Shown here: positions 4,405-64,000 of the stretch, in pieces
How positions within the stretch are numbered: position 1 is the stretch's first letter
Layout: each line of letters opens with the position of its first letter
DNA from: Ostreococcus lucimarinus
Lineage: Eukaryota
Length of the DNA: 64,000 bases
Direction: 5' to 3' (one strand)
Assembly: GCA_000092065.1 (NCBI GenBank)
Contig: CP000581.1
Notes under the pieces: generated by a model
Seen by the model: the letters and a program-made list of their open reading frames with translations, nothing else
Databases searched by the model: none
Told to the model about the DNA's origin: nothing
Translations under genes and position numbers: made by a program

Positions 4405-6175
4405 ATGACCGCGTCGAGCATGGACGTCGACGCCGACGCGTCGACCAAAGAAAACGTCGAACCGAGCGACGCGAACGCGCGTCGCGCGGACGTCGCGCAC
4501 CGGGTACGCGTCGTCGACGGTGCACGCGACGCGACGTCGCGTCGTCGAGATCGATCGCGACGCGCGGCGCGTCGTCGTCGAACGCTTTTCGATCGAGCGC
4601 GCGCGATGACGGCGGACTGACGACGCGTTCGACGGACACAGCTCGCGGGATGCGTGCGCGACGTGCAGAAATCGGTAGAGGCGAAGGGCGAGGCGAGATT
4701 CGTCGCGAGAGCGCTGCGAGAGGTGCGAGACGGCGACGCGCGAGGCGAGGCGAGGCGAAGACGCGAGGCGGACGCGGAAGAAACGACCGAGCGATGACTG
4801 ACGGTGCGCGCGCGCGCGGTGGATGACGTAGACGGCGATGGTGCGACGAGAGCTCACGAGCGAGAACGTGCGCGCGTTCGTGGGCGCGGTTTTGCCGGAG
4901 GAGAGCGCGGCGCGAGCGGCGCTCTTGGCTCGATGCGAGACCAAAGCGGCGGGAAGACAGACGAGAGGGAAGAGCGCGGGGACGAAGGGCAAGGGCGGCG
5001 AAAGCGATGATGCGGTGGTAGACTTAAGCGACGTTGCGCCGTGTGCGCTTCCAGAGGCGGAGGTGTACGCGTACTTGGTAGTTTTGATGCACTTGATTGA
5101 CGGCGAGCGAGGCGAGGACGCGCTCGAGTGCGCGCGAGAGGCGGTCGATAGAATCAAGCAGTTTAACCGTCGATCGATGGATGTGCTCGCGGCGAGAGTG
5201 TACTTTTACTACTCACTCGCGTACGAGAGATTTGGATCGCTCGAAGACGCGCGCGCGACGCTTCTGGCGCTGTATCGGACGTCGGCGCTGCGCCTGGACG
5301 AAATCGGCCAAGAAACTTTGGTCAACTTGCTGTTGCGCAACTACTTGCACTACAACCTTTACGACCACGCGGAAAAGCTTCGATCGAGGGTGACGCTGCC
5401 GCAATCGCGATCGATTCAACAGCAGTGCCGTTACGCGTACTACCTCGGTCGCATTCGCGCCGTGCAGTTGGAATACAGCGAGGCGAAGGAGTACCTGACG
5501 CAGGCGTACCAAAAAGCGCCGACGGGGGCGAAGGGGTTCCGTCTCGAGCTGTTGAAGTGGATCACCATCGTTCGAATGCTTTTGGGAGAGATTCCCGAGC
5601 GAAAGGAGCTGACTCAGCCGGAGATGCGCGCGGCCTTGGCACCGTATTTCGATCTCGTCCAGGCGGTGCGCATGGGCGACTTGACCGCGTTTCAACGCGC
5701 GGCGGAGACGCACGGGACGACGTTTACCGAAGACAAGTTGTCCAACTTGATCAACCGCTTGCGCGCGAATGTCATTCGAACCGGGCTCACGCGTATTAAC
5801 ACTGCGTACTCCAAGATTTCCCTCGCCGACGTGGCCGAGAAGCTCGGTTTGCCGAGCGTGGAGGACGCGGAATCCGTCGTCGCGAAGGCGATTCGCGACG
5901 GCAACGTCGACGCCGTCATCGATCATTCGGCCAAGGTGATGTATAGTAAGGAGACCACAGACGTCTACAGCACGCAAGAACCGCAAAGTGCGTTCCACGT
6001 GCGCATCGCGTTTTGCTTGGACACGCACAACGAAGCCGTCAAGGCGATGCGTTACCCGCCCAAGGAGAAGGCGAAAACCGCCGACGCGCTCGCGTCGCGC
6101 GGCGTCGACAACGACGCCTCAGGATTAGATCTCGCGGATTTCGACGACGACTACGACGATATGGACTTCTTCTAG
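4405..6175 (+). CDS. RPN3: 26S proteasome regulatory subunit RPN3/PSMD3 (PCI domain). Two exons: join(4405..4503,4832..6175)
   Basis: Exon 2 (ORF 4838..6175) aligns along its length to plant RPN3 (LLNLLLRNYLHYNLYDxAEKLRS...QLEYSEAKE...IRDGNVDAVIDH...DFDDDYDD). An in-frame TAG sits immediately upstream of the ATG at 4838, and the ORF lacks the conserved N-terminal helix. Exon 1 (ATG 4405, MTASSMDVDADASTKENVEPSDANARRADVAHR, donor GTACGC at 4504) spliced to the TAG acceptor gives ...RRADVAHRTAMVRRELTSENVRAFVGAVLP. This matches Arabidopsis RRIARAVRLTVGLRRKLTGSVISSFLDFALVP. Confidence 0.8.
4504..4831 (+). other. inferred intron of RPN3 (328 nt, GTACGC...TAG)
   Basis: See the RPN3 entry: phase-0 junction restores the conserved N-terminus. 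Confidence 0.6.
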
Positions 6176-6229
6176 ACTCTCTAACGATTTAATTACCAAC
6201 ACCGACGCGCGACGTGCGAAAAAACGCCC

Positions 6230-6733
6230 TCACTTCCGTCCCTTCTTCCCCTTCTTGCCGGAGCGCGCCTTCTCCGCTTTCTTCCCCTGCCCCGGCGCCG
6301 GCCCCGCCGCGCCCGCCACCTGCTTCAGGTATTCCTCGAACACCCTGTGTTGCGTCATAAACCTCGGATTCGTCCCCGGCTTCCCGTTTTCTCCTCGCTC
6401 CGGGTGCGCCTTGACCGCCGCCGCGATCGCCCGCAGCAGCTTCCCTCGCGTGTTCAGTTCCTCCCTCACGAAGCTCCCGTCGTCTCGCTTCCACTCCACG
6501 CGCACGCGTCCGCGGCACCAAAAATCTCTCGAGTACGCCTTATCCTCCAGCTCGCACCGCATCCCGAGCGCGCGCTCGCACGCGTCCGCCACCTCGAGCG
6601 CGTGCGGGTGCTCGACCGCGTCCTCGCGCGCGATGCGCCGTCCCTTCGCCACCGACCGCGCGGCGTCGATGTACGGCGGGTACACGACGACGCGCTCGTC
6701 GTGCTTCCAGATCATCGGCGCCTTGCTCGCCAT
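6230..6733 (-). CDS. SRP19: signal recognition particle 19 kDa protein SRP19
   Basis: VVVYPPYIDAARSVAKGRRIAREDAVEHPHALEVADACERALGM...AYSRDFWCRGRVRV matches SRP19 (ICIYPAYLNNKKTIAEGRRIP..KAVENP...YSREWNRDVQYRGRVRV). Lys-rich tail. Real ATG at 6733. Confidence 0.85.
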   Translation of the reverse strand: MASKAPMIWKHDERVVVYPPYIDAARSVAKGRRIAREDAVEHPHALEVADACERALGMRCELEDKAYSRDFWCRGRVRVEWKRDDGSFVREELNTRGKLLRAIAAAVKAHPERGENGKPGTNPRFMTQHRVFEEYLKQVAGAAGPAPGQGKKAEKARSGKKGKKGRK

Positions 6734-7773: not shown

Positions 7774-8169
7774 CTCGCTCGCAGTTCCGATCGTCGCGCC
7801 GGATCGGGCGCCCGTCCTCGTCGCGCGCGCCGACCGCCGACTTTCGTCGGGGGAACTTAAATCGCCAATTCATCATTCGCCGCACACGTCGACGCCATGT
7901 CCGCGCCCTCGCCCGCGCGCGACGCCGACGACGCGCGCTCGCCCGTCGCCGTGACGCCCGAACCGACGACGACGTCGCGCGACGCCGCCGCCGACGACGC
8001 CGACGACGCGCGCGCGCGAACGCCGACGACGCTCGCGGCGAGTTTCGACGCGATGACGCTGCGCGATCGCACGAACGACGCGACGACGAGGGAAACGAAA
8101 CACGCGCGCGCGTCGTCGCTCGGCGGGAAGAGGTGCGCGATCGATCGCGACGGGACACGACGACGCGCG

Positions 8170-8213
8170 ATGATTGATGATTGATGATGAATGATGAATG
8201 ATGAATGAATGAT
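8170..8213. repeat. (ATGA/ATGAATG)n simple repeat
   Basis: Direct reading: gatgattgatgattgatgatgaatgatgaatgatgaatgaatgatt. Confidence 0.85.
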
Positions 8214-8700
8214 TCGTCGACGACGCGCGCGGCGACTGACGACGACGCGCGAACGCCGGACAGATTCCACTCGCCCACGGACAGCGCGCTGAGCCCGGCG
8301 TCGAAATTCGTCGCGCGCAAGGCGCACCACGCGACGATCGCGATCGCGGATAAATCGCGCGCGGCGCCGCGTCCGGGCGTCGAAAACGCGAGCGAGGCGC
8401 CGCCGCGGTCGCGCTTCGCGCCCTCGTGATCGAACCGCCGCGACGGGCGCGGTCATTCTTTCCGACGCGTCGATCGATCGATCCGCGCGTCTTGTACATC
8501 ACACGCACATTATCTTTTCACGAGATCGCGTGATCGCGCCGTCGTCGTCCCGCGCGTCGGCGCCGCGCGCGTCCTCGCGTCTTCGCGTCTCGTCCGCGTC
8601 GACGCCGCGGGTTCGCTGTTTCCCCCGACGCGTTTCGATGGCGCCAGTCGATCGCGCGCGGCGCGTCGACGGCGAGCGTTCGGCGGACGCGCGCGCGGCG

Positions 8701-56200: not shown

Positions 56201-58307
56201 CGTTACTCGCCTTGACTCGTTCGATCTCTTCGCTGTGCGCCTTCTTCAGAGCAACCACGCGCTGTTCAAACTGGATCTGCGCGTCACGAATGGCATCGTT
56301 CGCTTGAGCGCTTACATCGACAACCGATGTGACTGGATCGGCGCGCTCAACTGGAGCGCCGCGCTCGATGTTGCGTCCAGGACTGGCCTTGTTCATCTCC
56401 GAATCAAGAAGCGCCTTTAGCGCTCGTCGCTCCCCAGCGGCACCGCGCATCGCGCTGTCGTACTTGGCCACGAGAGAGCTAATTTCAACTTCAGCCTCGG
56501 CACGTATTTCGGCAATCTTCGAAAGGAACTCGTCCTGAGTCGTCGAGTCACTGTCTTGAATCAGTCCCGCCACCGGCTCCCGTACTTTTGAGAGCGTGGC
56601 GGCAAAATCGGCCCGCTCTTTCACAATTCTCTCGCTATAAGACGCACAAATCGCTTTCAGTTGATCTTCGAGGAATGACAGGCGTTCTCCAGAGGTGACC
56701 TTCGCAAGAGCCAATTCTGACCGAAGCGTCGCCAGGTGCATGCGCTGCAGGTCACGTGATGCGCGATACTTGCTTGCTTCACTTCTTCCAAGTTCGCGTT
56801 CAGCGCGAATCAAGCCACGCGCGGCTCTAATTTCGATTTCATGACGCGTCGCCATAGATTTGTTCACCTCTTTCGCTTCGTGCAAAGCATCCTCAGCAAT
56901 ATTCAGCGCTTTCTCAAGCCTCTCGATGCTGCCCTTCAGCGTAACCTCTTGCGCGTGGAAGGCAGCTTCGTTTGCTTTGATGGCGGTTTCGTGCTCCTCT
57001 TTCATCTTTACGAGCACACGTTGAAGTTCTTCGGTGCTTTGTCCTCCCGCGCCGGCGCTTGAAAGCGAATCGATTTGCACATCCTTCATGTGGCGCTTGA
57101 AGTCGTCGTTCAGAGTCTTGAGGTTATCATTCTTCTCCTTCTTCATGGCGCCGAGCTTTTCGATTTCGGTTTCAAACTCCAGAATCATTGACTGCCGCAG
57201 TACTTCTAAGCGTCGCACCGCGCTACTATCGCTTTCCAAAGGCTGAGCAAGACTGGGCAAACGTTCCAATTTGGATCGCACTTTTTGCACGTCAACGCCA
57301 GAGCGAGAGATACCGAAGCCGATTGCCGCAGCGGCAACTGCAGCCGCAGACGCGATACCAGCTACCGCAGCGGTTTTTGCAACGACTGGCGGAAGCGCAT
57401 TATTGTGACGCAAAGTCATCGAGGTCGCATTTACCGCTGGTAAATTTTGAGCGAACGGGGCGACTGTTGCCGTTTTCACCACATTTTTTGGACGCTCAGC
57501 CACGATCGAGGTCGTCACCTGCGGCACAGTCGGCGACGCCGCGCGCCGATCGGCTGAAAAACTGTGTTTACCTCCGATAAGAGCCACGGCCGTCGCGATA
57601 CCACCGTAAATGAGCTTGGTCTCGGTATCGAATCTCTCAGTCGCGCGCATCATCGTCGTCGCGAGGGATGTCTGTTGTATTTTTTTCCGCACGATGGACG
57701 TCGTTTCTACCGTCTTCTTCACAATACTCGTCGTGGCCTTCATCCCAAGCGCCACGACTTCGTTCGCATCGCTCGATCGTTCGCATCGTTCGCATCGTTC
57801 GCATCGTTCGCATCGCTCGCATCCCTCGCCATCCTCATCGTCGTGCTCGTGCTCGTGCGATTCTTCGTACTCTTCGTACGCCTCGTCCGACATCCACGAG
57901 AACGACGCGAACCCGGGCGCGCTGTCGAACCCAGCCATACCAACTCTCCCCGCCCCCGGTCGCCGAACTTCACGCTCTTCGTCCTCGTCTTCCGCGCCCC
58001 CCCCGACCTCGAGCTCGAGCACTATCTCGTCCACGAGCTTGTATCCGCGAAAACTCGCCGTCCCGACGCCGTTTTCAAACATCGCGCGTCCGATCTCTCC
58101 CGGCTCGTCCCCTCGTCCCGCGCACGTCACCACGCGCCCGACTCGCATCGACGCCCTCCCGCGCGCGCTCGCCCGCGCGTCGCTCGCGCTCGCCCCTCGC
58201 GTCGCGTCGCCGCGCCGCTTCCCTCCCTCTCGCGTCGTCTCCCGCCGCCCCAGCGCGAGCGCGCCGCGCGCGCGCGTCGACATCACCCCGCGATCGACGA
58301 TCGCCAT
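47280..58307 (-). CDS. giant coiled-coil protein (3675 aa) with internal tandem repeats and possible N-terminal hydrophobic anchor. Start uncertain
   Basis: Uninterrupted 11 kb ORF; heptad-rich E/K/A/L/Q composition throughout. Recurring blocks QFEQRVVALKKAHNEEIERV and VKYTLPQ..YKFEG. N-terminal hydrophobic segments (LIYGGIATAVALIGG, AGIASAAAVAAAAIGFGI). CERCERCERCER tract. Real ATG at 58307, but downstream Mets (e.g. MFENG) are also possible. Confidence 0.7.
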   Translation of the reverse strand: MAIVDRGVMSTRARGALALGRRETTREGGKRRGDATRGASASDARASARGRASMRVGRVVTCAGRGDEPGEIGRAMFENGVGTASFRGYKLVDEIVLELEVGGGAEDEDEEREVRRPGAGRVGMAGFDSAPGFASFSWMSDEAYEEYEESHEHEHDDEDGEGCERCERCERCERCERSSDANEVVALGMKATTSIVKKTVETTSIVRKKIQQTSLATTMMRATERFDTETKLIYGGIATAVALIGGKHSFSADRRAASPTVPQVTTSIVAERPKNVVKTATVAPFAQNLPAVNATSMTLRHNNALPPVVAKTAAVAGIASAAAVAAAAIGFGISRSGVDVQKVRSKLERLPSLAQPLESDSSAVRRLEVLRQSMILEFETEIEKLGAMKKEKNDNLKTLNDDFKRHMKDVQIDSLSSAGAGGQSTEELQRVLVKMKEEHETAIKANEAAFHAQEVTLKGSIERLEKALNIAEDALHEAKEVNKSMATRHEIEIRAARGLIRAERELGRSEASKYRASRDLQRMHLATLRSELALAKVTSGERLSFLEDQLKAICASYSERIVKERADFAATLSKVREPVAGLIQDSDSTTQDEFLSKIAEIRAEAEVEISSLVAKYDSAMRGAAGERRALKALLDSEMNKASPGRNIERGAPVERADPVTSVVDVSAQANDAIRDAQIQFEQRVVALKKAHSEEIERVKASNASKPSQSALSVDQFNAALREEQLKFEQRVVALKKAHNEEIERVKASNASKPSQSALSVDQFNAALREEQLNFEQRVVALKKAHNEEIERVKASNASKPSQSALSVDQFNAALREEQLNFEQRVVALKKAHNEEIERVKVSKKSQVAVSPVEMRNDVDVDAVRDEAVRGVAGERRALKSMFDSEMRKASERTLTRLQSEVAISEVSSSKKMNDAIRDAQIQFEQRVVALKKAHNEELERLKRSATKDDAPAKIKALEQAHQMAIQTTAAAHATALEDARRESDRRVTQAEDRARDAISKLNESEASKAQLLAQFEAERINVKSNLASEQDAVKQDVTTLKEMYDDMLVRAVAEIQSLAEASKVQLESALKSTTGERNAMYKMMRAEAVKRLNQFDANEEIIDLKKQLSENMAIAEEQLVEAVAELKAENEQLEASLRASSSSTAEARVQLNDAIRDAQIQFEQRVVALKKAHNEEIERVRAASKASTHAVESPAYWEKKIKDVELMKDAQLKQLRQSYEQKIADLQASSSSSSSKDVDAQVAALNKQLEDAQKEREEAVKRAVAEIVADKDRLQAAVDAAKSQLDASLCELEELKALIKSDTPGVDVSAEITELQRQLRERTEVERDLRNQIASAQQTVKYTSPESITYKFEDTSRKTPENTANVNALEAKISALESQLTEMQKTKREYDAKIESLKASARAAPAVPAATTAGSDESAAKDAMILDLKKQLSEQSWRLQEQKAIAEEQLVEAVAELKAENEQLEASLRASSGSPVDTSAQVNDAIRDAQIQFEQRVVALKKAHNEEIERVRAASKASTTTGVSDRSAEIDALNKKLQDAENDAEEQVEAAVATILADNAKLQAAAAAEKAQLDASLRELEELKASMSKASGSDGLSSVVSDLQAQLSKRSSIELELRGQVDAAKAELQSLKTASKNGVKYTLPQFIKYTFEGGSTDDKLMKAQQAKISALESQLTEMQKTKREYDAKIESLKASARAAPAVPAATTAGSDESAAKDAMILDLKKQLSEQSWRLQEQKAIAEEQLVEAVAELKAENEQLEASLRASSGSPVDTSAQVNDAIRDAQIQFEQRVVALKKAHNEEIERVRAASKASTTTGVSDRSAEIDALNKKLQDAENDAEEQVEAAVATILADNAKLQAAAAAEKAQLDASLRELEELKASMSKASGSDGLSSVVSDLQAQLSKRSSIELELRGQVDAAKAELQSLKTASKNGVKYTLPQFIKYTFEGGSTDDKLMKAQQAKISALESQLTEMQKTKREYDAKIESLKASARAAPAVPAATTAGSDESAAKDAMILDLKKQLSEQSWRLQEQKAIAEEHLVEAVASIQAFASSELAQRDASSRSSAGERRALYAMMRNEAIKQSADAMVEFTAEVATAEAQSSIFWEQKIREVEAAKDAQIDRLKQEYQGKIDALQSSTAWVSSDDDEMKKIKAQLAASKSSESELRKRVESTKKDLEDLKQKSKGGIKYTLPQTVTYKFTGNKVDASLEKERDALQAQVTRLESQLDEMQKSKRLYEQTIANMKSTSKTDTETATIDDQVAALKKQLADANESAERELIQAVAEIQASAEADRVALVALVKSEADDRVSQESKLFQEEKEALITAQTLEIETLQNAMKTSLASDETTKVKQAEDLWKAKLEEVERSAKIQADEIAAEYEATVKRLELQLEEVSEGYESTIKKLNKTLKRTATETEAELRLEVTEARKELDAFKRKQQQKREKSVVKYTLPQSVTYKFEGSTGEVKRLKKQRDALQEKLEKLEAEFATQAKRSSPDVEKHIFDLEAQIKAVRAERDQDVLSVTTRLQSEKLDSERRLEKELEKARKGMQKAEEKYKAVLDKAKGDRGGIFASIIGASQGQDASLDAVNAQIKDQTVLLSAAETEARDAQEREVKLREEISRLTLEFEQKSSASANEIAALKAELKDAVSNASSTFAAESETTVKEYKQRISELESKLKSGDDTVAAIAKLQADAQEQLAVTVARLNEERERAVADAETKYALDLARLTENASASFDEDDEMTAAVAQMLRKMAKLEQERDAWQFDSVAWKDQAKSYEANVRSLESERADILVKYQNSQAMLGSRISEMNAMKEKHNDEIVRAVAQTTADATLEFNQKIQESKEHTREVEVLLAALREDFKERVRDSAQLMNKQLKSRERELEKQIRRAHRDYAEQAKKMENVQYRLASVQADEANVRSLESERADILVKYQNSQAMLGSRISEMNAMKEKHNDEIVRAVAQTMADATLEFNQKIQESKEHTREVEVLLAALREDFKERVRDSAQLMNKQLKSRERELEKQIRRAHRDYAEQAKKMENVQYRLASVQAEFAEAEAKWSRSMLLMKEDFERRLKSEQVTLAEKIAFYEQRVGALTDELDVAKKQSSSSKVVSETSVQRPLFEFNKGKVAAERAAREDAERKLRAAQSEMVTLRDQLLAAKEEATKAKEDAALAAEEAALAAEEAAKTSAPSLFERLFGASNRSMKETNASTPTESVIQKSKPAQSPSKVATLERDLEAAVKKLSEFKTAQKAEIEAVEKAMRIESESKLKALESKVSTLENQLANSEKIANQKLASAMEAAKAERDRMEKTLRTEIAAAKKLTESAKLAAQREYIAALREAETTAKKALRDQLAIAAAERSKSEAALRATAKKANDKLKAKIANFENMLNDRDLEIEAKFNAQFDKLVVDFRQEVETLQRAVRDAEKRAGQTGGPPQIVEKVVEKIVEVEKIVEKEVATSTGRRGDADAYAEEIAKTQASLKELRERSEIDIAKLRESYEARLRDTIAAKDAALKASREKALKIVAEEKSKAEKSLRLSVSDREKQLEADRLALERSFEQTATERDEYAVEIKRLRVSLDEAKKRLRDFVNLSDEELKVLEESKKVAGELDDLKSKYAESMGISVQDVEAEDVVKSMTISSLRSVITRKTNTNETKKTAASAVDYFTQLLDMSNEDK
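49167..49980. repeat. 408-bp tandem duplication (2 copies) inside the giant coiled-coil gene
   Basis: Copies starting at about 49167 and 49575 read near-identically (..ggcctgaacactcgcaagtcgatactggacattctccattttcttcgcctgttccgcataatccctgtgcgc..). Duplicated six-frame ORFs 49002/49425/49833 share sequence. Confidence 0.8.
52176..54198. repeat. 885-bp tandem repeat, 2 full copies plus about 250-bp partial third, essentially identical, inside the giant coiled-coil gene
   Basis: Identical six-frame ORFs offset by exactly 885 nt (52204/53089/53974; 52505/53390; 52597/53482; 52734/53619). Direct reading confirms identity from cgacggcctcgacgag onward. Confidence 0.9.
55788..56350. repeat. 141-bp tandem repeat (about 4 copies), each encoding a 47-aa unit FEQRVVALKKAHNEEIERVKASNASKPSQSALSVDQFNAALREEQL(K/N)
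   Basis: cttgactcgttcgatctcttcgttgtgcgccttcttcagagcaaccacgcgctgctcaaa recurs at about 55788, 55929, 56070 and 56211. Confidence 0.85.
57761..57825. repeat. 9-bp repeat (CGTTCGCAT)x5-6, encoding (CER)n on the minus strand in the giant gene N-terminal region
   Basis: Direct reading: cgttcgcatcgttcgcatcgttcgcatcgttcgcatcgctcgcatc. Confidence 0.85.
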
Positions 58308-58797
58308 CCTCGCGCGCGCGCGCCCGGCGTCTCCCCGTATCGCGCGCGTCCGACGACGCCACTAATCCAAAACCCGACCGATCGCGTCCCGCGCGCGCGC
58401 GTCCTCGTCGCGTCGCGTCGCTCCGATCGCCCGCGTCGCTCGAATCGCGCTCGCGCGCGTCGGCGTCGACGCGCGTCGATCACTGCGCCGCGCGGCGGCG
58501 CCGCGCGCGACGTCCGCGGTCGATCCGCGTCGCGCGGTCGGTCGGTCGGTCGCCGTTTTATCGCGGCGCGCGCGCGCGCGTCACATGGCGTTCGAGTCGG
58601 TACACTACGACGTCCGCGCGCGTCGTCGTCGCCCCTCGCGCGACGGGTCCGATCGCGACGTCGTCGTCGTCGTCGACGCGCGATCGAGGGTCGACGTCGG
58701 CGCGCGATCGACGCCGCGCGTTTCGCGTCGCGCGCGGGCGCGGCGATCGCGCGCCGACGCGCGATAGGGTCGCGGCGGCGCGAGACGACGACGCGCG

Positions 58798-61110
58798 ATG
58801 GCGACGACGACGACGATGCGCGTCGCGGACGCGAGAGGCGCGATGACGCGAGGCGGCGCGCGATGCGCGCGACGCGCGACGGCGCGACGCGCGACGCGCG
58901 CGACGGCGCGACGCGCGACGGTGGCGAACGCGGGGCAGACGATGTACGATAAAATCATCGACGACCACCGCGTGCGAACGCAGGACGACGGGACGCTGCT
59001 GCTGTACATCGATCGACACATGATACACGAGGTGACGTCGCCGCAAGCGTTCGAGGGGCTGCGAACGGCGGGACGGGCGGTGCGACGACCGGATAACACG
59101 CTGGCGACGGTGGATCACAACGTGCCCACGAGCGACCGGAGCGGGTTCGAGAGCGCGGAGACGTTCATCAAGGAGATGGACTCTCGCGTGCAGGTGTTGC
59201 AGCTGGAGGAGAACGTGGAGGAGTTTGGGGTGACGTATTTCGGGATGGACGATAAGAGACAGGGGATCGTGCACATCATCGGACCGGAACAGGGGTTCAC
59301 GCTGCCGGGGACGACGGTGGTGTGCGGGGACTCGCACACGGCGACGCACGGCGCGTTCGGGGCGCTGGCGTTCGGAATCGGGACGAGCGAGGTCGAACAC
59401 GTGCTCGCGACGCAGACGTTGTTGCAAAAGCCGTCGAAGAATATGCGAATCACGATCGATGGGAAGCTCGGAGATGGGGTGACGAGTAAGGATATTATTT
59501 TGCACATCATCGGCGTCATCGGCACGGCGGGCGGAAACGGCTCCGTGATTGAATTCGCGGGCGAAGCCATTCGCTCGCTCTCCATGGAGGCGCGAATGAG
59601 TATTTGTAACATGGCCATTGAAGGTGGGGCGCGCGCGGGTATGATTGCCCCGGATGAGATCACGTTCGAGTACCTCAAGGGTCGTCCGATGTCGCCTCGA
59701 GGGGAGACGTGGAATCGCGCGGTCGAGTACTGGAAGTCTCTCGCCTCCGACGCGGATTCCAAGTACGATCGCGAGATCGTTATTCCGGCGTCCGATATCG
59801 AACCCACGGTGACTTGGGGGACGTCCCCGCAAGATGTCGTTGGGATTTCGGGCATCGTTCCCGATCCGAAGGACTTCGACGAGGCGCGCGGCAAGTCGAT
59901 GCAACGCGCGCTCGATTACATGGGTCTGACCCCGGGCACTAAGATGCAAGATGTCGTCGTCGACAAGGTGTTCGTCGGCTCGTGCACGAACGGTCGCATC
60001 GAAGACGTGCGCGCGGTCGCCGCGGTGGCCAAAGGTAGAAAGGTTGCCGACAACGTGTACGCCATGGTCGTCCCGGGTTCGGGCATCGTCAAGGAGCAAG
60101 CCGAAGCCGAAGGCTTGGACGTCATCCTCAAGGAAGCTGGCTTCGACTGGCGCGAGCCCGGTTGCTCGATGTGTTTGGCAATGAACCCGGATAAGTTGCT
60201 TCCGGGCGAACGCTGCGCGTCAACCTCCAACCGTAACTTTGAAGGTCGTCAAGGCAACGGCGGTCGCACGCACTTGATGTCGCCGGCGATGGCTGCCGCC
60301 GCGGCCATCACGGGTAAGCTTTGCGACGTCCGCACCCTCGGCTCTGGCGCTGTCTTGACCGGCGAAGATGCTCCGGGTAAGCTCGAAAGCAAGGACTTCT
60401 TATCGGACGCCTTGGTCACTTCCCCGCCGCCGCAAAAGAAGGACAACGGTCCGGCGGGCGCGGGCGGCATGGCCAAGTTTACCACCTTGAAGGGTGTAGC
60501 CGCGGCCATGGAACTTCAGAACATCGACACCGATATGATCATCCCCAAGCAATTCTTGAAGACGATCAAGCGCACCGGCCTCGGAGTCTCTGCGTTTTAC
60601 GAAATGCGTTACGACGAGCAAGGCGTCGAACGCCCGGATTTCGTGTTGAACAACGAGCCGTACCGCAACGCCTCCATTTTGGTCGCCGGTAACAATTTTG
60701 GTTGCGGGTCTTCTCGTGAGCACGCGCCGTGGGCGATTAATGACTTCGGCATTCGATGCATCATCTCCACCGCCTTTGCCGACATCTTCTTCAACAACTG
60801 CTTCAAGAACGCCATGTTGCCAATCGTTCTCGACGAAGCCACCGTGAACACGCTCATGGCGGACGCCAACGCCAAGCAAGAGCTCGAAATCGACTTGCCG
60901 AACCAAGTCGTCATTCGATCAAACGGCGAGAAGATTCCATTCGAAGTCGACGAGTTCCGCAAGCACTGCTTGATCAACGGCTTGGACGACATCGGCTTGA
61001 CGATGCAGCAAGACGCCGACATCGCCGCGTTCGAGGCCAAGCGCACCGAAAACTTCCCGTGGCTCAACGGCGCCGGCTACGTCCAAGGCAGCGCCACCCC
61101 GGCGCGTTAA
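58798..61110 (+). CDS. LEU1: 3-isopropylmalate dehydratase, fused large+small subunits (LeuC-LeuD, LEU1-type) with organellar presequence
   Basis: [11 protein letters not shown]...[21 protein letters not shown]...[33 protein letters not shown] (LeuC, aconitase-family Fe-S ligand region). C-terminal [35 protein letters not shown]...[23 protein letters not shown] (LeuD). Single ORF of 770 aa. Real ATG. Confidence 0.9.
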
Positions 61111-61240
61111 TACCACGCACGTCGAAACTTTAGCACAACCACACGATTGCAACGATCACGTATTACCACTATCGACGCGCGTCTCCGCCGTCCGCGCTGG
61201 CCCCCTCATCCGCCACCGTCATCCGCACACCACCGCGCGT

Positions 61241-62410
61241 TTGCCCGACATGTTCCGCCGAGCCGGCGACAAATTTGCCGCGCGAACCGCGCGCGCGACG
61301 TTCGCGCTCTTCGGCGACGTCACCGCGTCCACGCGCGTTCCGCGCGCGTCGTCTCGCGCGCGACGGTTCGCCCAACCGTCAGCCATCGCCATCGCGCGCG
61401 AATTCGCCGACGACGCGCACAATCGCGTGCGCTACCCTTCGCCCGAGGTGAAGATCGGCCAGCCCGCGCCGCAGTTCGATTCTCCCGCGTGCGTCGACGG
61501 CGATCTCGGCCGGGTGAAGCTGAGCGATTACCTCGGGAAGTATTGCGTGGTGTTCTTCTACCCGCTCGACTTTACGTTTGTGTGCCCGACGGAGATCACG
61601 GCGTTTAACGATCGCGCGGATGAATTCGAAGCGCTGAACACGAAAGTGATAGCGGTGTCGACGGATAGTGAGTACTCGCACTTGGCGTGGACGATGATGG
61701 AACGCGAACGAGGCGGTTTGGGGGCGATGCGGATACCGATCGTGAGCGACCGGACGAAGGAGATCAGCGCCAAGTACGGAGTGCTGTTCGAAGACCGAGG
61801 AATTGCGCTGAGAGGGCTGTTTATCATCGACGACGAGGGGATCGTGCAGCAGATCACGATGAATAACTTGCCCGTGGGGCGGAGCGTGGACGAGACGCTG
61901 CGGCTCGTGCGAGCGTTTCAGTACACGGCGGAACACGGCGAGGTGTGTCCGGCGGGATGGACGCCCGGTGCGCCCACGATGATCGATGATCCTGAAAAGT
62001 CCAAGACGTATTTCGAGCAACACGCTGGCGCGCCAAGTGGGGGATCGTCTTCAAGCGGCGGTTCGTCGAACGGCGATTTCGCCGCCAAGCTCACGCCCAT
62101 CGCGTCGCGCGCAGACTTCAACGCCTTGATCGCTGGACCCAAGCCAGTCGTCGTTGATTTCATGGCGAGCTGGTGCGGCAAGTGTCGACAAATCGCCCCG
62201 GAGGTCGACAAGCTCATCGATCAGTACCCGGATGTCGTCTTCGCGAAATTCGACACGGCGCACGCGGATTTGGCGCCTCTCTCCAAGGAGTTGGGCATCG
62301 AGGCCATGCCGACTTTCAAGTTTTACAAGGACGGCAAAGAAGTCAACGAAGTGATCGGTTACAAGCCTAAGCTCTTGCGCGACGCCGTTGTTGATTTCGC
62401 GGGCCATTGA
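61241..62410 (+). CDS. typical 2-Cys peroxiredoxin (AhpC/BAS1 type) with transit peptide, fused through a Gly/Ser linker to a C-terminal thioredoxin domain (WCGKC)
   Basis: Prx: [14 protein letters not shown] (peroxidatic Cys) ... [13 protein letters not shown] (resolving Cys). Linker [16 protein letters not shown]. Trx: [22 protein letters not shown]...[22 protein letters not shown]. One continuous ORF. Real ATG. Confidence 0.85.
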
Positions 62411-62440
62411 GACAATTATTTTACAAAACAGTTCCTATCG

Positions 62441-63613
62441 CTAAACGCGCGCTTTTGATTCCACCTCCACCGTGCTTCCATTCGTCGCCCGTGTGTGCTT
62501 GATGACCACACTTTCACCACGCTCGCGCGCTACTCTGACGTTCATCCAAATCTCGAATGCGAGTGCGAGGCGACGTTGCGTCGGCGCGTCGCGTTCCGCC
62601 CGAGCTGGATCTACTCTAACGATCTCGTCGACGTCGCACTGTTCGTGGATAAACGATTTAATGCTCGCAAAAACGTCGCCATCGCGTGGAAACGCACAAA
62701 TCATCGTGTCGAACACGAATCTGTAGTACGACCACAGCGCCTCGTGTCCCGGGTATTGGCGTATGAGGTGACGCGACAATTCGTCTTCATAGAGTACAAT
62801 CGAACGACGATCCGCCGGCCGCGCGCCCAACGCGCGCTTGACGATGTGCGACCGGTAGTGCAACGCGCAATGATCGCTCACGCTCGTTCGCACGCGGCGT
62901 TCGTTTTCACAGAGCTCTTGATCTAACAACTCCCGACGGTTCGGCAAAAGGCGCCGCAGCGCCCACGCGCGATGCGACCACGCCGCGTAATTCAATCTCT
63001 TCTTCAACACCGCCGCGTCGCACGCCCGGCACTCTTCTCGAAACGTTTCTAGCGCCCACGCGTCCTTTTTCGACCCATCACCAATCACCGCCGCGCGCGC
63101 GGCGTCGATCACCCATCGCCGGTGCGCCCAAGCGCTCGGCGCCTTTGGAAATCGACTCTGCACCGCGCGCGCAAACGCCAACTCATCGCGCGCGCCTTCC
63201 ACCAATCCGTCCCGCTCGCGCGCGCTCATCTTCTCGACGCCGTCGAATCGCGCCTTCATCGTTCTCTTTCGCGCGTTCCACGCCGTGGCGTGATCGCCGT
63301 TCGCGCACAGCGCCGTCGCCGCCGCGTCGAAATCCGCGTCGTCGTCGTCGCCCTCCCATCGCCTCGCCGACGCCTCGCGCACGCCCACGACGGCGTCGTG
63401 CGACATCACCAGCGCGTCGCCGCACGCGTAAAACGCGTCCGGCATTCGCGACGCGTTCTCGTCGCCTCGCGTCGTTCCGAACAGCGCCGCTCGCGACACG
63501 TCCGGCGCGTGTTCGACGCTCCGCACCGCGCGCGTCCCGCTCGCGTCGTCGCGCGCGCCGAGCAATCGATCGAGCTCGATCGCCATCGCCGTCGCGCGCG
63601 CGCTCGGCGCCAT
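62441..63613 (-). CDS. protein prenyltransferase alpha-subunit repeat (PPTA) protein; FNTA/PTAR1-like
   Basis: Repeated W..R.W motifs typical of PPTA repeats (NYAAWSHRAWALRRLL, SAWAHRRWVIDAA, EALWSYYRFVFD). Confidence 0.55.
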   Translation of the reverse strand: MAPSARATAMAIELDRLLGARDDASGTRAVRSVEHAPDVSRAALFGTTRGDENASRMPDAFYACGDALVMSHDAVVGVREASARRWEGDDDDADFDAAATALCANGDHATAWNARKRTMKARFDGVEKMSARERDGLVEGARDELAFARAVQSRFPKAPSAWAHRRWVIDAARAAVIGDGSKKDAWALETFREECRACDAAVLKKRLNYAAWSHRAWALRRLLPNRRELLDQELCENERRVRTSVSDHCALHYRSHIVKRALGARPADRRSIVLYEDELSRHLIRQYPGHEALWSYYRFVFDTMICAFPRDGDVFASIKSFIHEQCDVDEIVRVDPARAERDAPTQRRLALAFEIWMNVRVARERGESVVIKHTRATNGSTVEVESKARV

Positions 63614-63668
63614 CGCGCCGCGCCGCGCGCCGCGCGGTGCCGCACATCGCGCCCGGCCGGGCCGGCGC

Positions 63669-63993
63669 GATGCCGCGGCCGCATCGCGCGCGCGGCGTCG
63701 CGCTCGCCGCGCTGCTGACGCTCGCGCGCGCGTCGCGCGTCGCCGCCGACGTCGCGGTGCGCGACTTCGCGCAGACGGGGACGTCGTGGACGTTCCAGGG
63801 CGTCGCCGCGCCGGCCAAGTCGAGCGAGGCGAGCGACGCGCACGCGCTGCGGGTGACGCCCGCGCGCGCGAACGCGGCGGGAAGCGCGTTCGCGACGAGC
63901 AAACAGCTCGTCGGCGGTGGATTCGTGGCGGAGTTCGCGTTCGCGATCACGACGCCCGCGAACGTGGAGGTGCCGTGCGAGGGGGTGGACCAC
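63669..63993 (+). CDS. secreted L-type (legume-like/ERGIC-53/VIP36-like) lectin-domain protein, 3'-truncated by the window end
   Basis: ATG 63669; signal-peptide-like MPRPHRARGVALAALLTLARASRVAA. Then SWTFQG...ALRVTPARANAAGSAFATSKQLVGGGFVAEFAFAITTP matches the L-type lectin N-terminal pattern (W.FQG...LRLTPD...GS.W....F.F.V). Not in the ORF track because it has no stop within the window. Confidence 0.5.
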
Positions 63994-64000
63994 GCGCCGG

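Follow-up and report, generated by a model that had tools for sequence, protein, structure and literature searches.

The locus examined here, located in a 64,000-nucleotide stretch of Ostreococcus lucimarinus DNA (the window; contig CP000581.1 of assembly GCA_000092065.1), raises the question of whether a 2-Cys peroxiredoxin (Prx) and a thioredoxin (Trx) are encoded there as a single polypeptide and, if they are, in which compartment and to what end the two domains would act together. Our analysis favors, on balance, the view that the Ostreococcus gene belongs by orthology to a widespread family of organelle-targeted 2-Cys Prx with a C-terminal C-G-K-C Trx, in which the Trx recycles the Prx and the most likely destination is the mitochondrion.

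The open reading frame (ORF) at positions 61,241–62,410 (plus strand, as are all features below unless otherwise indicated) is present as first described. The TTG at 61,241 is only its mechanical start; because orthologs likewise begin with MFRR, the ATG at 61,250 was taken as the biological start, defining a complete, intron-less coding sequence for a Prx-Trx fusion (61,250–62,410; 386 amino acids plus stop) that is supported by Pfam, orthologs and metagenome matches. No stop codon, frameshift or intron separates the two domains within this sequence, in agreement with the original prediction of one uninterrupted ORF, and the frame is also kept in a syntenic ortholog, 74% identical, from a second Ostreococcus lineage, despite an in-frame linker indel of three codons. 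The fusion ORF is far beyond chance. It could be argued that assembly or sequencing error joined adjacent Prx and Trx genes, or that the two are translated separately, given that the O. lucimarinus reference model XP_001415395.1 (192 amino acids, labeled ‘partial’) covers the Prx core only. However, in addition to the conservation of frame, the identical continuous ORF appears on many independent metagenome contigs, the exact 386-amino-acid protein (P0121) being found in 348 marine metagenome blocks with identical neighbors; a transcript-like, gene-sized contig of 1,240 bp, corresponding exactly to positions 61,239–62,478, spans both halves; the Trx half has neither a start codon context nor a presequence of its own; and over 100 protein clusters, transcriptome assemblies included, contain fused ORFs. 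The artifact is effectively refuted, and we attach a negligible probability to it; the annotation of XP_001415395.1 needs to be extended to the full-length fusion. Two antisense ORFs inside the gene (61,382–62,023 and 62,054–62,407, minus strand), neither of them matched by Pfam, were set aside as GC-rich frame artifacts, and in the metagenome loci a ‘thioredoxin’ gene some 2.7 kb downstream proved to be a PDI-like fragment ending in KTEL, not a partner Trx.

All Pfam matches to the protein exceed curated cut-offs, and the AlphaFold2 monomer model has a mean pLDDT of 83.3, with a confident Prx core and low confidence at residues 1–54 and 266–273. Together with the sequence motifs, these results bear out the predicted anatomy: a targeting extension at the N-terminus is followed by a typical 2-Cys Prx, which a flexible linker joins to a complete Trx whose active site is WCGKC. 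The Prx domain, of Prx1/AhpC type (residues 62–257; 61,433–62,020), begins at a family-invariant Y62-P63 and is matched by Pfam AhpC-TSA at residues 69–201 (E 8.6e-44) and by 1-cysPrx_C at residues 222–256 (E 4.9e-13). The peroxidatic cysteine (Cp) is C112 in FTFVCPTE (61,583–61,585); the resolving cysteine (Cr), C233 in EVCPAGW (61,946–61,948), lies about 120 residues past it, in the E-V-C-P motif of the C-terminal arm, as in typical 2-Cys Prx. Both are invariant in alignment A1, and so are the GGLG motif (residues 155–158; 61,712–61,723), which according to the literature marks 2-Cys Prx of the hyperoxidation-sensitive eukaryote type, and the YF motif (Y254-F255; 62,009–62,014) in the helix at the C-terminal end of the Prx half (residues 248–258 in the model); the joint presence of GGLG and YF is that of the hyperoxidation-sensitive eukaryotic subgroup. 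Foldseek aligns the Prx half with PRDX4 and PRDX2 at 60–62% identity (rmsd 1.1 Å, TMt 0.96). By its sequence and predicted fold, this half is thus a typical 2-Cys Prx of the Prx1/AhpC subfamily. Foldseek matches of the fusion model in the PDB are confined to the Prx half, and therefore no solved chain carries both domains.

The Trx domain, of eukaryotic h/cytosolic type (residues 280–386; 62,087–62,407), is recognized by Pfam Thioredoxin at residues 286–374 (E 1e-22), and DSSP on the AlphaFold2 model returns the canonical fold b1a1b2a2b3a3b4b5a4 over residues 282–385. Its closest solved structures are yeast Trx2 and Trx1 (E 3.5e-22), and its closest standalone proteins are plant Trx h (40–51% identity). 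A word-indexed search restricted to the Trx half yielded 31 matches, for the most part plant Trx h, and failed to recover the fused homologs; an exhaustive representative search was dominated by multi-domain PDIs and was filtered by motif. PDI-type a-domains (PDIA4, TXNDC5) score nearly as high as true Trx against this half. The equivalent of the Trx cis-proline, P354 in MPTF (62,309–62,311), is invariant in A1 and aligns to the MPT of yeast Trx2, and a family-specific G370-Y371-K372 motif (62,357–62,365), also invariant in A1, stands where yeast Trx2 has G-A-N. The residue equivalent to the buried Asp, D303, is variable in the family, so that catalysis by the Trx domain may differ from that of classical Trx. 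The active site, W308-C309-G310-K311-C312 (62,171–62,185), reads WCGKC and not the WCGPC of canonical Trx. Its residues C309, K311 and C312 are invariant; WCGKC is found in 109 of 118 family members, and the remaining nine all retain the Lys. Since this Lys is invariant across 118 homologs, the Trx half must be considered atypical, and the Lys is no local peculiarity.

The interdomain linker (residues 258–279; 62,021–62,086), delimited by pLDDT and low conservation, includes a 12-residue low-complexity stretch (residues 264–275; 62,039–62,074), with pLDDT below 50 at residues 266–273. Its sequence is unconserved (conservation of 0.19 and median identity of 15% in the family alignment), and tether length is nevertheless held to 39–52 amino acids across the family. 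Estimates of dN/dS are 0.085 for the Prx half, 0.097 for the Trx half, 0.41 for the linker and 0.81 for the presequence; purifying selection is equally strong on the two halves (dN/dS ~0.09) and is relaxed in the linker and presequence.

Far from being unusual in an alga, as originally supposed, the fusion is found widely in related genomes. At least 118 protein clusters, drawn from many chlorophytes as well as from stramenopiles, show this architecture (Mamiellales, Chlorophyceae, Trebouxiophyceae, Pyramimonas, oomycetes, brown algae and raphidophytes), and Prx-Trx proteins with WCGKC have been in print since 2011, when they were reported from Blastocystis and P. infestans (Denoeud et al. 2011, Genome Biol 12:R29; PMC3129679). 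The matches are full-length (E 1e-101 to 1e-187, 80–99% query coverage) except for two unfused proteins (P0008, P0009). The Y62-P63 and G-Y-K motifs are common to the Ostreococcus protein and the named family members, the P. infestans gene is a single uninterrupted ORF, and complete fused ORFs lie on assembled transcripts of relatives such as Mantoniella beaufortii (MMETSP1326). As judged from these sequences, the Ostreococcus gene is a well-conserved member of a known Prx-Trx(WCGKC) family, neither the architecture nor the motif being novel. In the literature searched we found no biochemical, localization or structural study of any family member, searches on Prx in oomycetes or Chlamydomonas included; the Ostreococcus iron and selenoproteome papers leave the fusion gene unmentioned, and papers on Andalucia and on P. 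infestans RNA-seq had no bearing on it. Cr2CPC, described with an unstructured 33-amino-acid C-terminal extension and without ESTs (Pitsch et al. 2010), may represent this same fusion gene in a truncated model.

Most ‘standalone’ WCGKC matches proved to be fragments of fusions. A clear exception is a standalone Trx of Aphanomyces invadans (P0309), which has the same WCGKC/GYKKK and a mitochondrial-looking presequence, and within 5 kb of whose gene no Prx was found. The existence of this separate WCGKC Trx gives Rosetta-stone support to the view that the Trx of the fusion recycles its Prx.

The compartment in which the protein would operate is suggested by its N-terminus. The predicted targeting presequence (residues 1–54; 61,250–61,411) is basic and poorly conserved (mean column conservation of 0.27), has pLDDT below 50 over its entire length and ends in an R-3 type processing motif recognizable in the sequence, A-R-E-F↓A-D-D (residues 51–54; 61,400–61,411). 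Of 102 family members, 68 contain the pattern R-x-[FYL]-[ASG], where shuffled sequences would lead one to expect 8.6, and the Ostreococcus fusion protein sequence contains no signal peptide or ER retention motif. The extension had been described as a transit peptide; it is indeed there, but its R-x-F↓A motif and the existence of orthologs in plastid-less oomycetes make it look mitochondrial, not plastidial. The Blastocystis ortholog is predicted to reside in the mitochondrion-like organelle (Denoeud et al. 2011; PMC3129679). We infer that the fusion protein is most likely a mitochondrial matrix peroxidase. A plastid location, or dual targeting, of the same enzyme in Ostreococcus, where it would complement or replace the NTRC/2-Cys Prx system, appears quite improbable. 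The host is photosynthetic, and the presequence is rich in Ala, Ser, Thr and Arg, a composition also known from algal transit peptides; algal plastid and mitochondrial presequences overlap in this respect. However, comparable N-terminal extensions occur in the plastid-less oomycetes and in Blastocystis, the mitochondrial-type motif of the Ostreococcus protein is strongly enriched in the family, the standalone Aphanomyces homolog carries a textbook mitochondrial-type presequence, and in full-length phmmer comparison with the Prx half plant plastid BAS1 scores no higher (243.6 bits) than animal PRDX1–4 do (245–277 bits).

In the mechanism that we favor, the presequence would be cut near R-E-F↓A following import, and the Prx half would assemble as the usual head-to-tail dimer or decamer. 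Cp C112 would reduce H2O2 or an alkyl hydroperoxide, being oxidized to a sulfenic acid, and would then condense with Cr C233 of the partner chain. The Trx domain would sit some 40–50 residues past the YF helix, where the C-terminal arm unfolds once the disulfide has formed, and the tether would raise the local concentration of the donor; C309 would attack the Cp-Cr disulfide and C312 would resolve the resulting bond. This direction of electron flow is one that we infer, and the AlphaFold2 model, being a monomer, is uninformative on the docking of the Trx to a Cp-Cr disulfide that forms between subunits. The oxidized Trx domain would be re-reduced by an external donor, most plausibly NADPH-thioredoxin reductase. 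Thioredoxin reductase has been detected in the O. tauri proteome and is a possible reductase of the Trx domain, and Pfam reveals no reductase domain in the fusion polypeptide. Since recharging of the Trx domain would depend on a reductase outside the polypeptide, the module is only partly self-contained: the notion of a tethered electron donor put forward in the original prediction is reasonable, but the self-sufficiency that it attributed to the module does not hold.

The likely effect of the Lys can be gauged from TrxL2, a WCRKC protein with an Em of −258/−245 mV, versus approximately −320 mV for typical Trx, that is an efficient reductant of 2-Cys Prx. By analogy, replacement of the canonical Pro by this invariant Lys is likely to weaken the Trx as a reductant and to specialize it further for the Prx. 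A less reducing CGKC site would suit an oxidizing role just as well, and this counts against the model of a Trx devoted to Prx recycling. The Prx could use H2O2 to oxidize the tethered CGKC Trx, which would in turn oxidize client proteins, making the enzyme a peroxide-driven thiol oxidase or redox relay whose main role would be to transduce a signal or to generate disulfides, not to scavenge peroxide. The 2-Cys Prx/TrxL2 oxidation cascade of chloroplasts and the PRDX4-to-PDI relay of the ER are the models for such a scheme. The invariant Lys stands precisely where Pro keeps classical Trx strongly reducing, and TrxL2, with Lys at the same position, oxidizes targets that it cannot reduce. Furthermore, the PDIA4 and TXNDC5 a-domains approach true Trx in score, the structure of a PRDX4-TXNDC5 complex is known (8eky), and the conserved GGLG and YF ‘sensitive’ motifs are typical of signaling-competent Prx. 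Against these points, the proteins that the Trx half matches best, yeast Trx1/2 and plant Trx h, are true reducing thioredoxins, candidate clients are not known, and the motif is WCGKC, not WCRKC or WCGHC. Sequence data cannot tell such a relay from Prx recycling, because the first step, in which Trx reduces Prx, is common to both. We consider the relay unlikely, albeit credible, and offer only tentatively its broader form, in which a mitochondrial thiol oxidase or H2O2 sensor, ranging from green algae to oomycetes, would use the CGKC Trx as its output arm and hand disulfides on to client proteins of the matrix. It would thus unite in one chain what the 2-Cys Prx/TrxL2 and PRDX4/PDI relays do with separate proteins, and would be encoded by split genes in some lineages (Aphanomyces).

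Comparison with known systems helps to situate the favored reading, that of a mitochondrial Prx recycled by its own Trx. The stramenopile fusions (the Prx of the Blastocystis mitochondrion-like organelle and the P. infestans ‘thioredoxin-dependent peroxide reductase’) share with the Ostreococcus protein their domain order, WCGKC site and N-terminal organellar extension, and the P. infestans protein is 55% identical to it over 85% of the query, with the GYK motif and tether length in common. They differ in lineage, Ostreococcus being a Mamiellophyceae green alga, and in the linker, which is acidic in oomycetes and Gly/Ser-rich in Ostreococcus. Among animal systems, PRDX1/2/4 and the mitochondrial PRDX3/Trx2/TrxR2 pathway provide the counterpart of the Prx half (57–62% identity to PRDX2/3/4 in structural alignment, with GGLG and YF), and the latter is also alike in proposed compartment and chemistry; it relies, however, on a separate WCGPC Trx, whereas the Ostreococcus Trx is covalently tethered and has Lys for Pro. 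The plant TrxL2/2-Cys Prx cascade likewise uses an atypical Trx, with Lys before the second Cys, as donor to a 2-Cys Prx, but TrxL2 is a separate plastid protein, reported to be absent from Chlorophyta. The Ostreococcus Trx half, with WCGKC instead of WCRKC and with Trx h and yeast Trx as its nearest relatives, does not match the description of TrxL2 as a WCRKC protein of the Trx-f/ACHT/TrxL2 clade; the likeness is one of functional analogy only.

NTRC, the plastid reductant of 2-Cys Prx, similarly shortens the path by fusing two consecutive components of the NADPH → TrxR → Trx → 2-Cys Prx chain. In NTRC, however, the reductase is fused to Trx, whereas in Ostreococcus the Trx is fused to the peroxidase, in a chain without reductase. 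Bacterial Prx5-Grx (PGdx of Haemophilus influenzae) and AhpC/AhpF also combine a peroxidase with its immediate thiol-disulfide donor, in one chain or as a dedicated pair, but they involve a Prx5-subfamily enzyme with glutaredoxin/GSH or a separate flavoprotein, AhpF, and are not homologous as fusions. Lastly, in the PRDX4-PDI relay (PDB 8eky, PRDX4 with TXNDC5) a Prx1-type disulfide is passed to a Trx-fold CGxC domain with a basic residue before the second Cys; this relay differs in operating in the ER lumen, through separate CGHC proteins, in oxidative folding.

If the fused Trx does serve to recycle its Prx, the family would constitute a natural test of how tethering affects turnover, hyperoxidation sensitivity and specificity, and of how replacing Pro with Lys in CGPC affects redox potential. 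In Ostreococcus, a clock model amenable to genetics, rhythms of Prx hyperoxidation serve as a marker, and work with anti-Prx-SO2/3 should allow for a second 2-Cys Prx, of ~35–40 kDa, bearing the same DFTFVCPTE segment.

The gene at 61241-62410 on the plus strand encodes a well-preserved two-domain enzyme, in which a 2-Cys peroxiredoxin (Prx) is joined through a linker to a thioredoxin (Trx). The open reading frame identified in the original prediction is borne out, with the mechanical ORF opening at a TTG and the first ATG, at 61250, yielding a protein of 386 aa that begins with MFRR, the same start as in its orthologs. Pfam domains were detected far over their curated cut-offs for AhpC-TSA (residues 69-201; E = 8.6e-44), the Prx C-terminal domain (222-256; E = 4.9e-13) and Thioredoxin (286-374; E = 1e-22). 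All the motifs named in that prediction are present, and the sequence contains FTFVCPTE with the peroxidatic cysteine (Cp) C112, GGLG (155-158), EVCPAGW with the resolving cysteine (Cr) C233, YF (254-255), the linker [12 protein letters not shown] (264-275) and the Trx active site WCGKC (308-312). An AlphaFold2 model based on a 48-sequence alignment of the fusion family (mean pLDDT 83.3, pTM 0.71) shows low confidence only at residues 1-54 and 266-273, and assigns residues 282-385 the b1a1b2a2b3a3b4b5a4 order of a textbook thioredoxin fold. Overlaid on reduced PRDX4 and PRDX2, the Prx half fits at 1.1-1.6 A (TMt 0.96). The best solved structures for the Trx half are yeast Trx2 and Trx1 (E = 3.5e-22), its nearest standalone proteins are plant h-type Trx (40-51% identity), and no single chain in the PDB spans both halves.

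An assembly or annotation error as the origin of the fusion can be regarded as effectively excluded. Marine metagenome assemblies contain the identical 386-aa protein in 348 indexed blocks, and the metagenome loci shown maintain a constant gene order, with a LeuC/LeuD-type aconitase-family fusion upstream, the Prx-Trx gene and a convergent PPTA-repeat gene. A second Ostreococcus lineage carries a 74%-identical ortholog in the same order. A 1,240-bp JGI contig corresponding to 61239-62478 contains the Prx-Trx gene alone, with 11 nt before the ATG and 68 nt past the stop, and resembles an mRNA contig; complete fused ORFs also occur among the assembled transcripts of relatives, one of them the mamiellalean Mantoniella beaufortii. 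Antisense ORFs within the gene showed no family match. The O. lucimarinus CCE9901 reference protein (XP_001415395.1/ABO93687.1), which falls in the 90% cluster of the 386-aa protein, is modelled as 'partial', with 192 aa (EVKIG...YFEQ; 61433-62020) that comprise only the Prx core and lack the presequence and the entire Trx half. Many metagenome contigs back the 386-aa ORF. The partial model is probably why the fusion seemed new from the O. lucimarinus genome.

The product of the upstream gene (58798-61110, plus strand) is one 770-aa chain combining Aconitase and Aconitase_C/LeuD domains with an Arg/Ala-rich N-terminal extension, a fungal-type isopropylmalate isomerase with fused large and small subunits; in land plants these subunits are encoded apart. 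Downstream, about 30 bp separate the Prx-Trx stop (62410) from the end of the minus-strand PPTA-repeat gene (62441), so that the presumed 3' UTR, which reaches 62478 in the JGI contig, shares about 38 nt with the 3' end of the opposite gene. Sharp GC spikes (0.75-0.78, compared with about 0.55-0.62 in coding bodies) at 58000-58750 and 63250-64000 coincide with the 5' ends, or with divergent promoter regions, of the LeuCD and PPTA-repeat genes. Outside the window, about 2.7 kb past the Prx-Trx gene in a metagenome locus (L002), a 'Thioredoxin' call at 7843-8337 was rejected as a PDI-like fragment with a KTEL end (an ER-retention-like signal), probably a piece of a larger ER protein that a prokaryotic gene finder called wrongly.

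The architecture had been put forward as unusual in an alga, a view that does not hold. The search for it in other genomes, proposed with the original prediction and conducted here on about 5.8 billion proteins, recovered the Prx-linker-Trx arrangement in 118 of the 120 matches listed (306-634 aa), giving at least 118 such proteins. They encompass many green algae (Pyramimonas, Tetradesmus, Raphidocelis, Chlamydomonas incerta, schloesseri and eustigma, Gonium, Volvox, Pleodorina, Astrephomene, Polytomella, Chlorella, Micractinium, Parachlorella, Coccomyxa, Trebouxia and Botryococcus), oomycetes (Phytophthora, Pythium, Globisporangium, Plasmopara, Peronospora, Hyaloperonospora and Lagenidium), brown algae (Ectocarpus and Ascophyllum) and the raphidophyte Chattonella. 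Two Onchocerca matches (P0008 and P0009; 389-407 aa, about 45-49% coverage) contain Prx domains only and may be tandem Prx or merged models, and a 634-aa Scenedesmus 'PRDX1' (P0025), a fusion with an extra PF07699, is probably a merged gene model. Denoeud et al. (2011; PMC3129679), in describing the Blastocystis genome, had already put architecture and motif on record; theirs is the sole paper with 'WCGKC' in the literature searched, which yielded no study of the biochemistry, structure or localisation of any family member. The protein analyzed here represents, in Ostreococcus, a widespread family that has been catalogued and noted in the literature already.

Among the 118 listed fusions the Trx active site reads WCGKC in 109, WCNKC in four, HCGKC in three, and WCSKC and YCGKC in one each; its Lys is therefore invariant. 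Cp, Cr, GGLG, YF, C309, K311, C312 and the cis-Pro P354 are likewise invariant in the 48-sequence alignment, together with Y62 at the N-terminal edge of the Prx core (P63 nearly so) and a family-specific G-Y-K at 370-372. At D303, where classical Trx has its buried catalytic Asp (VVVDF), the column varies: some members present K or E (e.g. ...VAKF..., ...AIKF...), and active-site proton handling may therefore differ from that of canonical Trx. The nearest documented analogy for the Lys is plant TrxL2 (WCRKC), whose Em of -258/-245 mV compares with about -320 to -335 mV for Trx f and m; TrxL2 is an efficient reductant of 2-Cys Prx and serves other proteins as an oxidation factor. This likeness is functional rather than one of family membership, since TrxL2 is reported absent from Chlorophyta and the Trx half is h-type or yeast-like.

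The N-terminal extension had been described as a transit peptide; the extension itself is confirmed, but its plastid reading is disfavoured. At least 20 residues long in 102 of the 118 listed fusions (median 71.5), it is basic, and its first 30 residues hold on average 4.6 K+R and 0.75 D+E. R-x-[FYL]-[ASG] is an R-3 type site of the mitochondrial processing peptidase. It occurs within the last 35 extension residues in 68 of these 102 proteins, compared with a mean of 8.6 and a maximum of 17 in 500 shuffles, and as A-R-E-F|A-D-D (residues 50-56) in the Ostreococcus protein. Plastid-less oomycetes have orthologs, the Blastocystis ortholog is predicted to reside in the mitochondrion-like organelle (PMC3129679), and a standalone Aphanomyces homolog bears a presequence of classic mitochondrial type. 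Taken together, these sequence features favour targeting to the mitochondrial matrix, and the motif enrichment, oomycete orthologs, Blastocystis prediction and Aphanomyces presequence make a plastid localisation quite improbable.

In 2-Cys Prx, peroxide converts Cp-SH to Cp-SOH, which forms an intersubunit Cp-Cr disulfide; the C-terminal arm past Cr unfolds locally. The Trx domain is joined straight after this arm and therefore lies within a few tens of residues of its target disulfide, which it would reduce. Contrary to the original prediction, the module is not self-contained: Pfam identifies no reductase domain in the protein, and a thioredoxin reductase found in the O. tauri proteome is a plausible donor to the Trx half. 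Alternatively, the Prx disulfide could be loaded onto the Trx domain and passed to clients, a redox relay with precedents in 2-Cys Prx/TrxL2 and PRDX4/PDI; PDB 8eky holds PRDX4 with TXNDC5, and PDI a-domains score almost equal to Trx against the Trx half. The opening step of this relay, reduction of Prx by Trx, is common to simple recycling, and sequence data cannot split the two; we consider the relay rather unlikely.

Nei-Gojobori dN/dS against the 74%-identical ortholog (dS about 1.0-1.2) is 0.085 for the Prx half and 0.097 for the Trx half, against 0.41 for the linker and 0.81 for the presequence. Linker sequence is unconserved (median identity 15%, mean column conservation 0.19), the indel between the two Ostreococcus orthologs is three codons with the frame kept, and YF and the W of WCGKC are held 39-52 residues apart in the family, with one outlier, probably mis-modelled. 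A Rosetta-stone-type observation comes from Aphanomyces invadans XP_008874757.1, whose 142 aa comprise a presequence and a WCGKC/GYKKK Trx and nothing else; no Prx is encoded in the 5 kb flanking it on each side, so the family has fused and split forms. A second Trx gene is located about 0.6 kb downstream, the pair corresponding to 5001-5562 and 6128-6588 of the KI913976.1 segment. The equal constraint on the two domains, along with the restricted tether length, argues that Prx and Trx function together.
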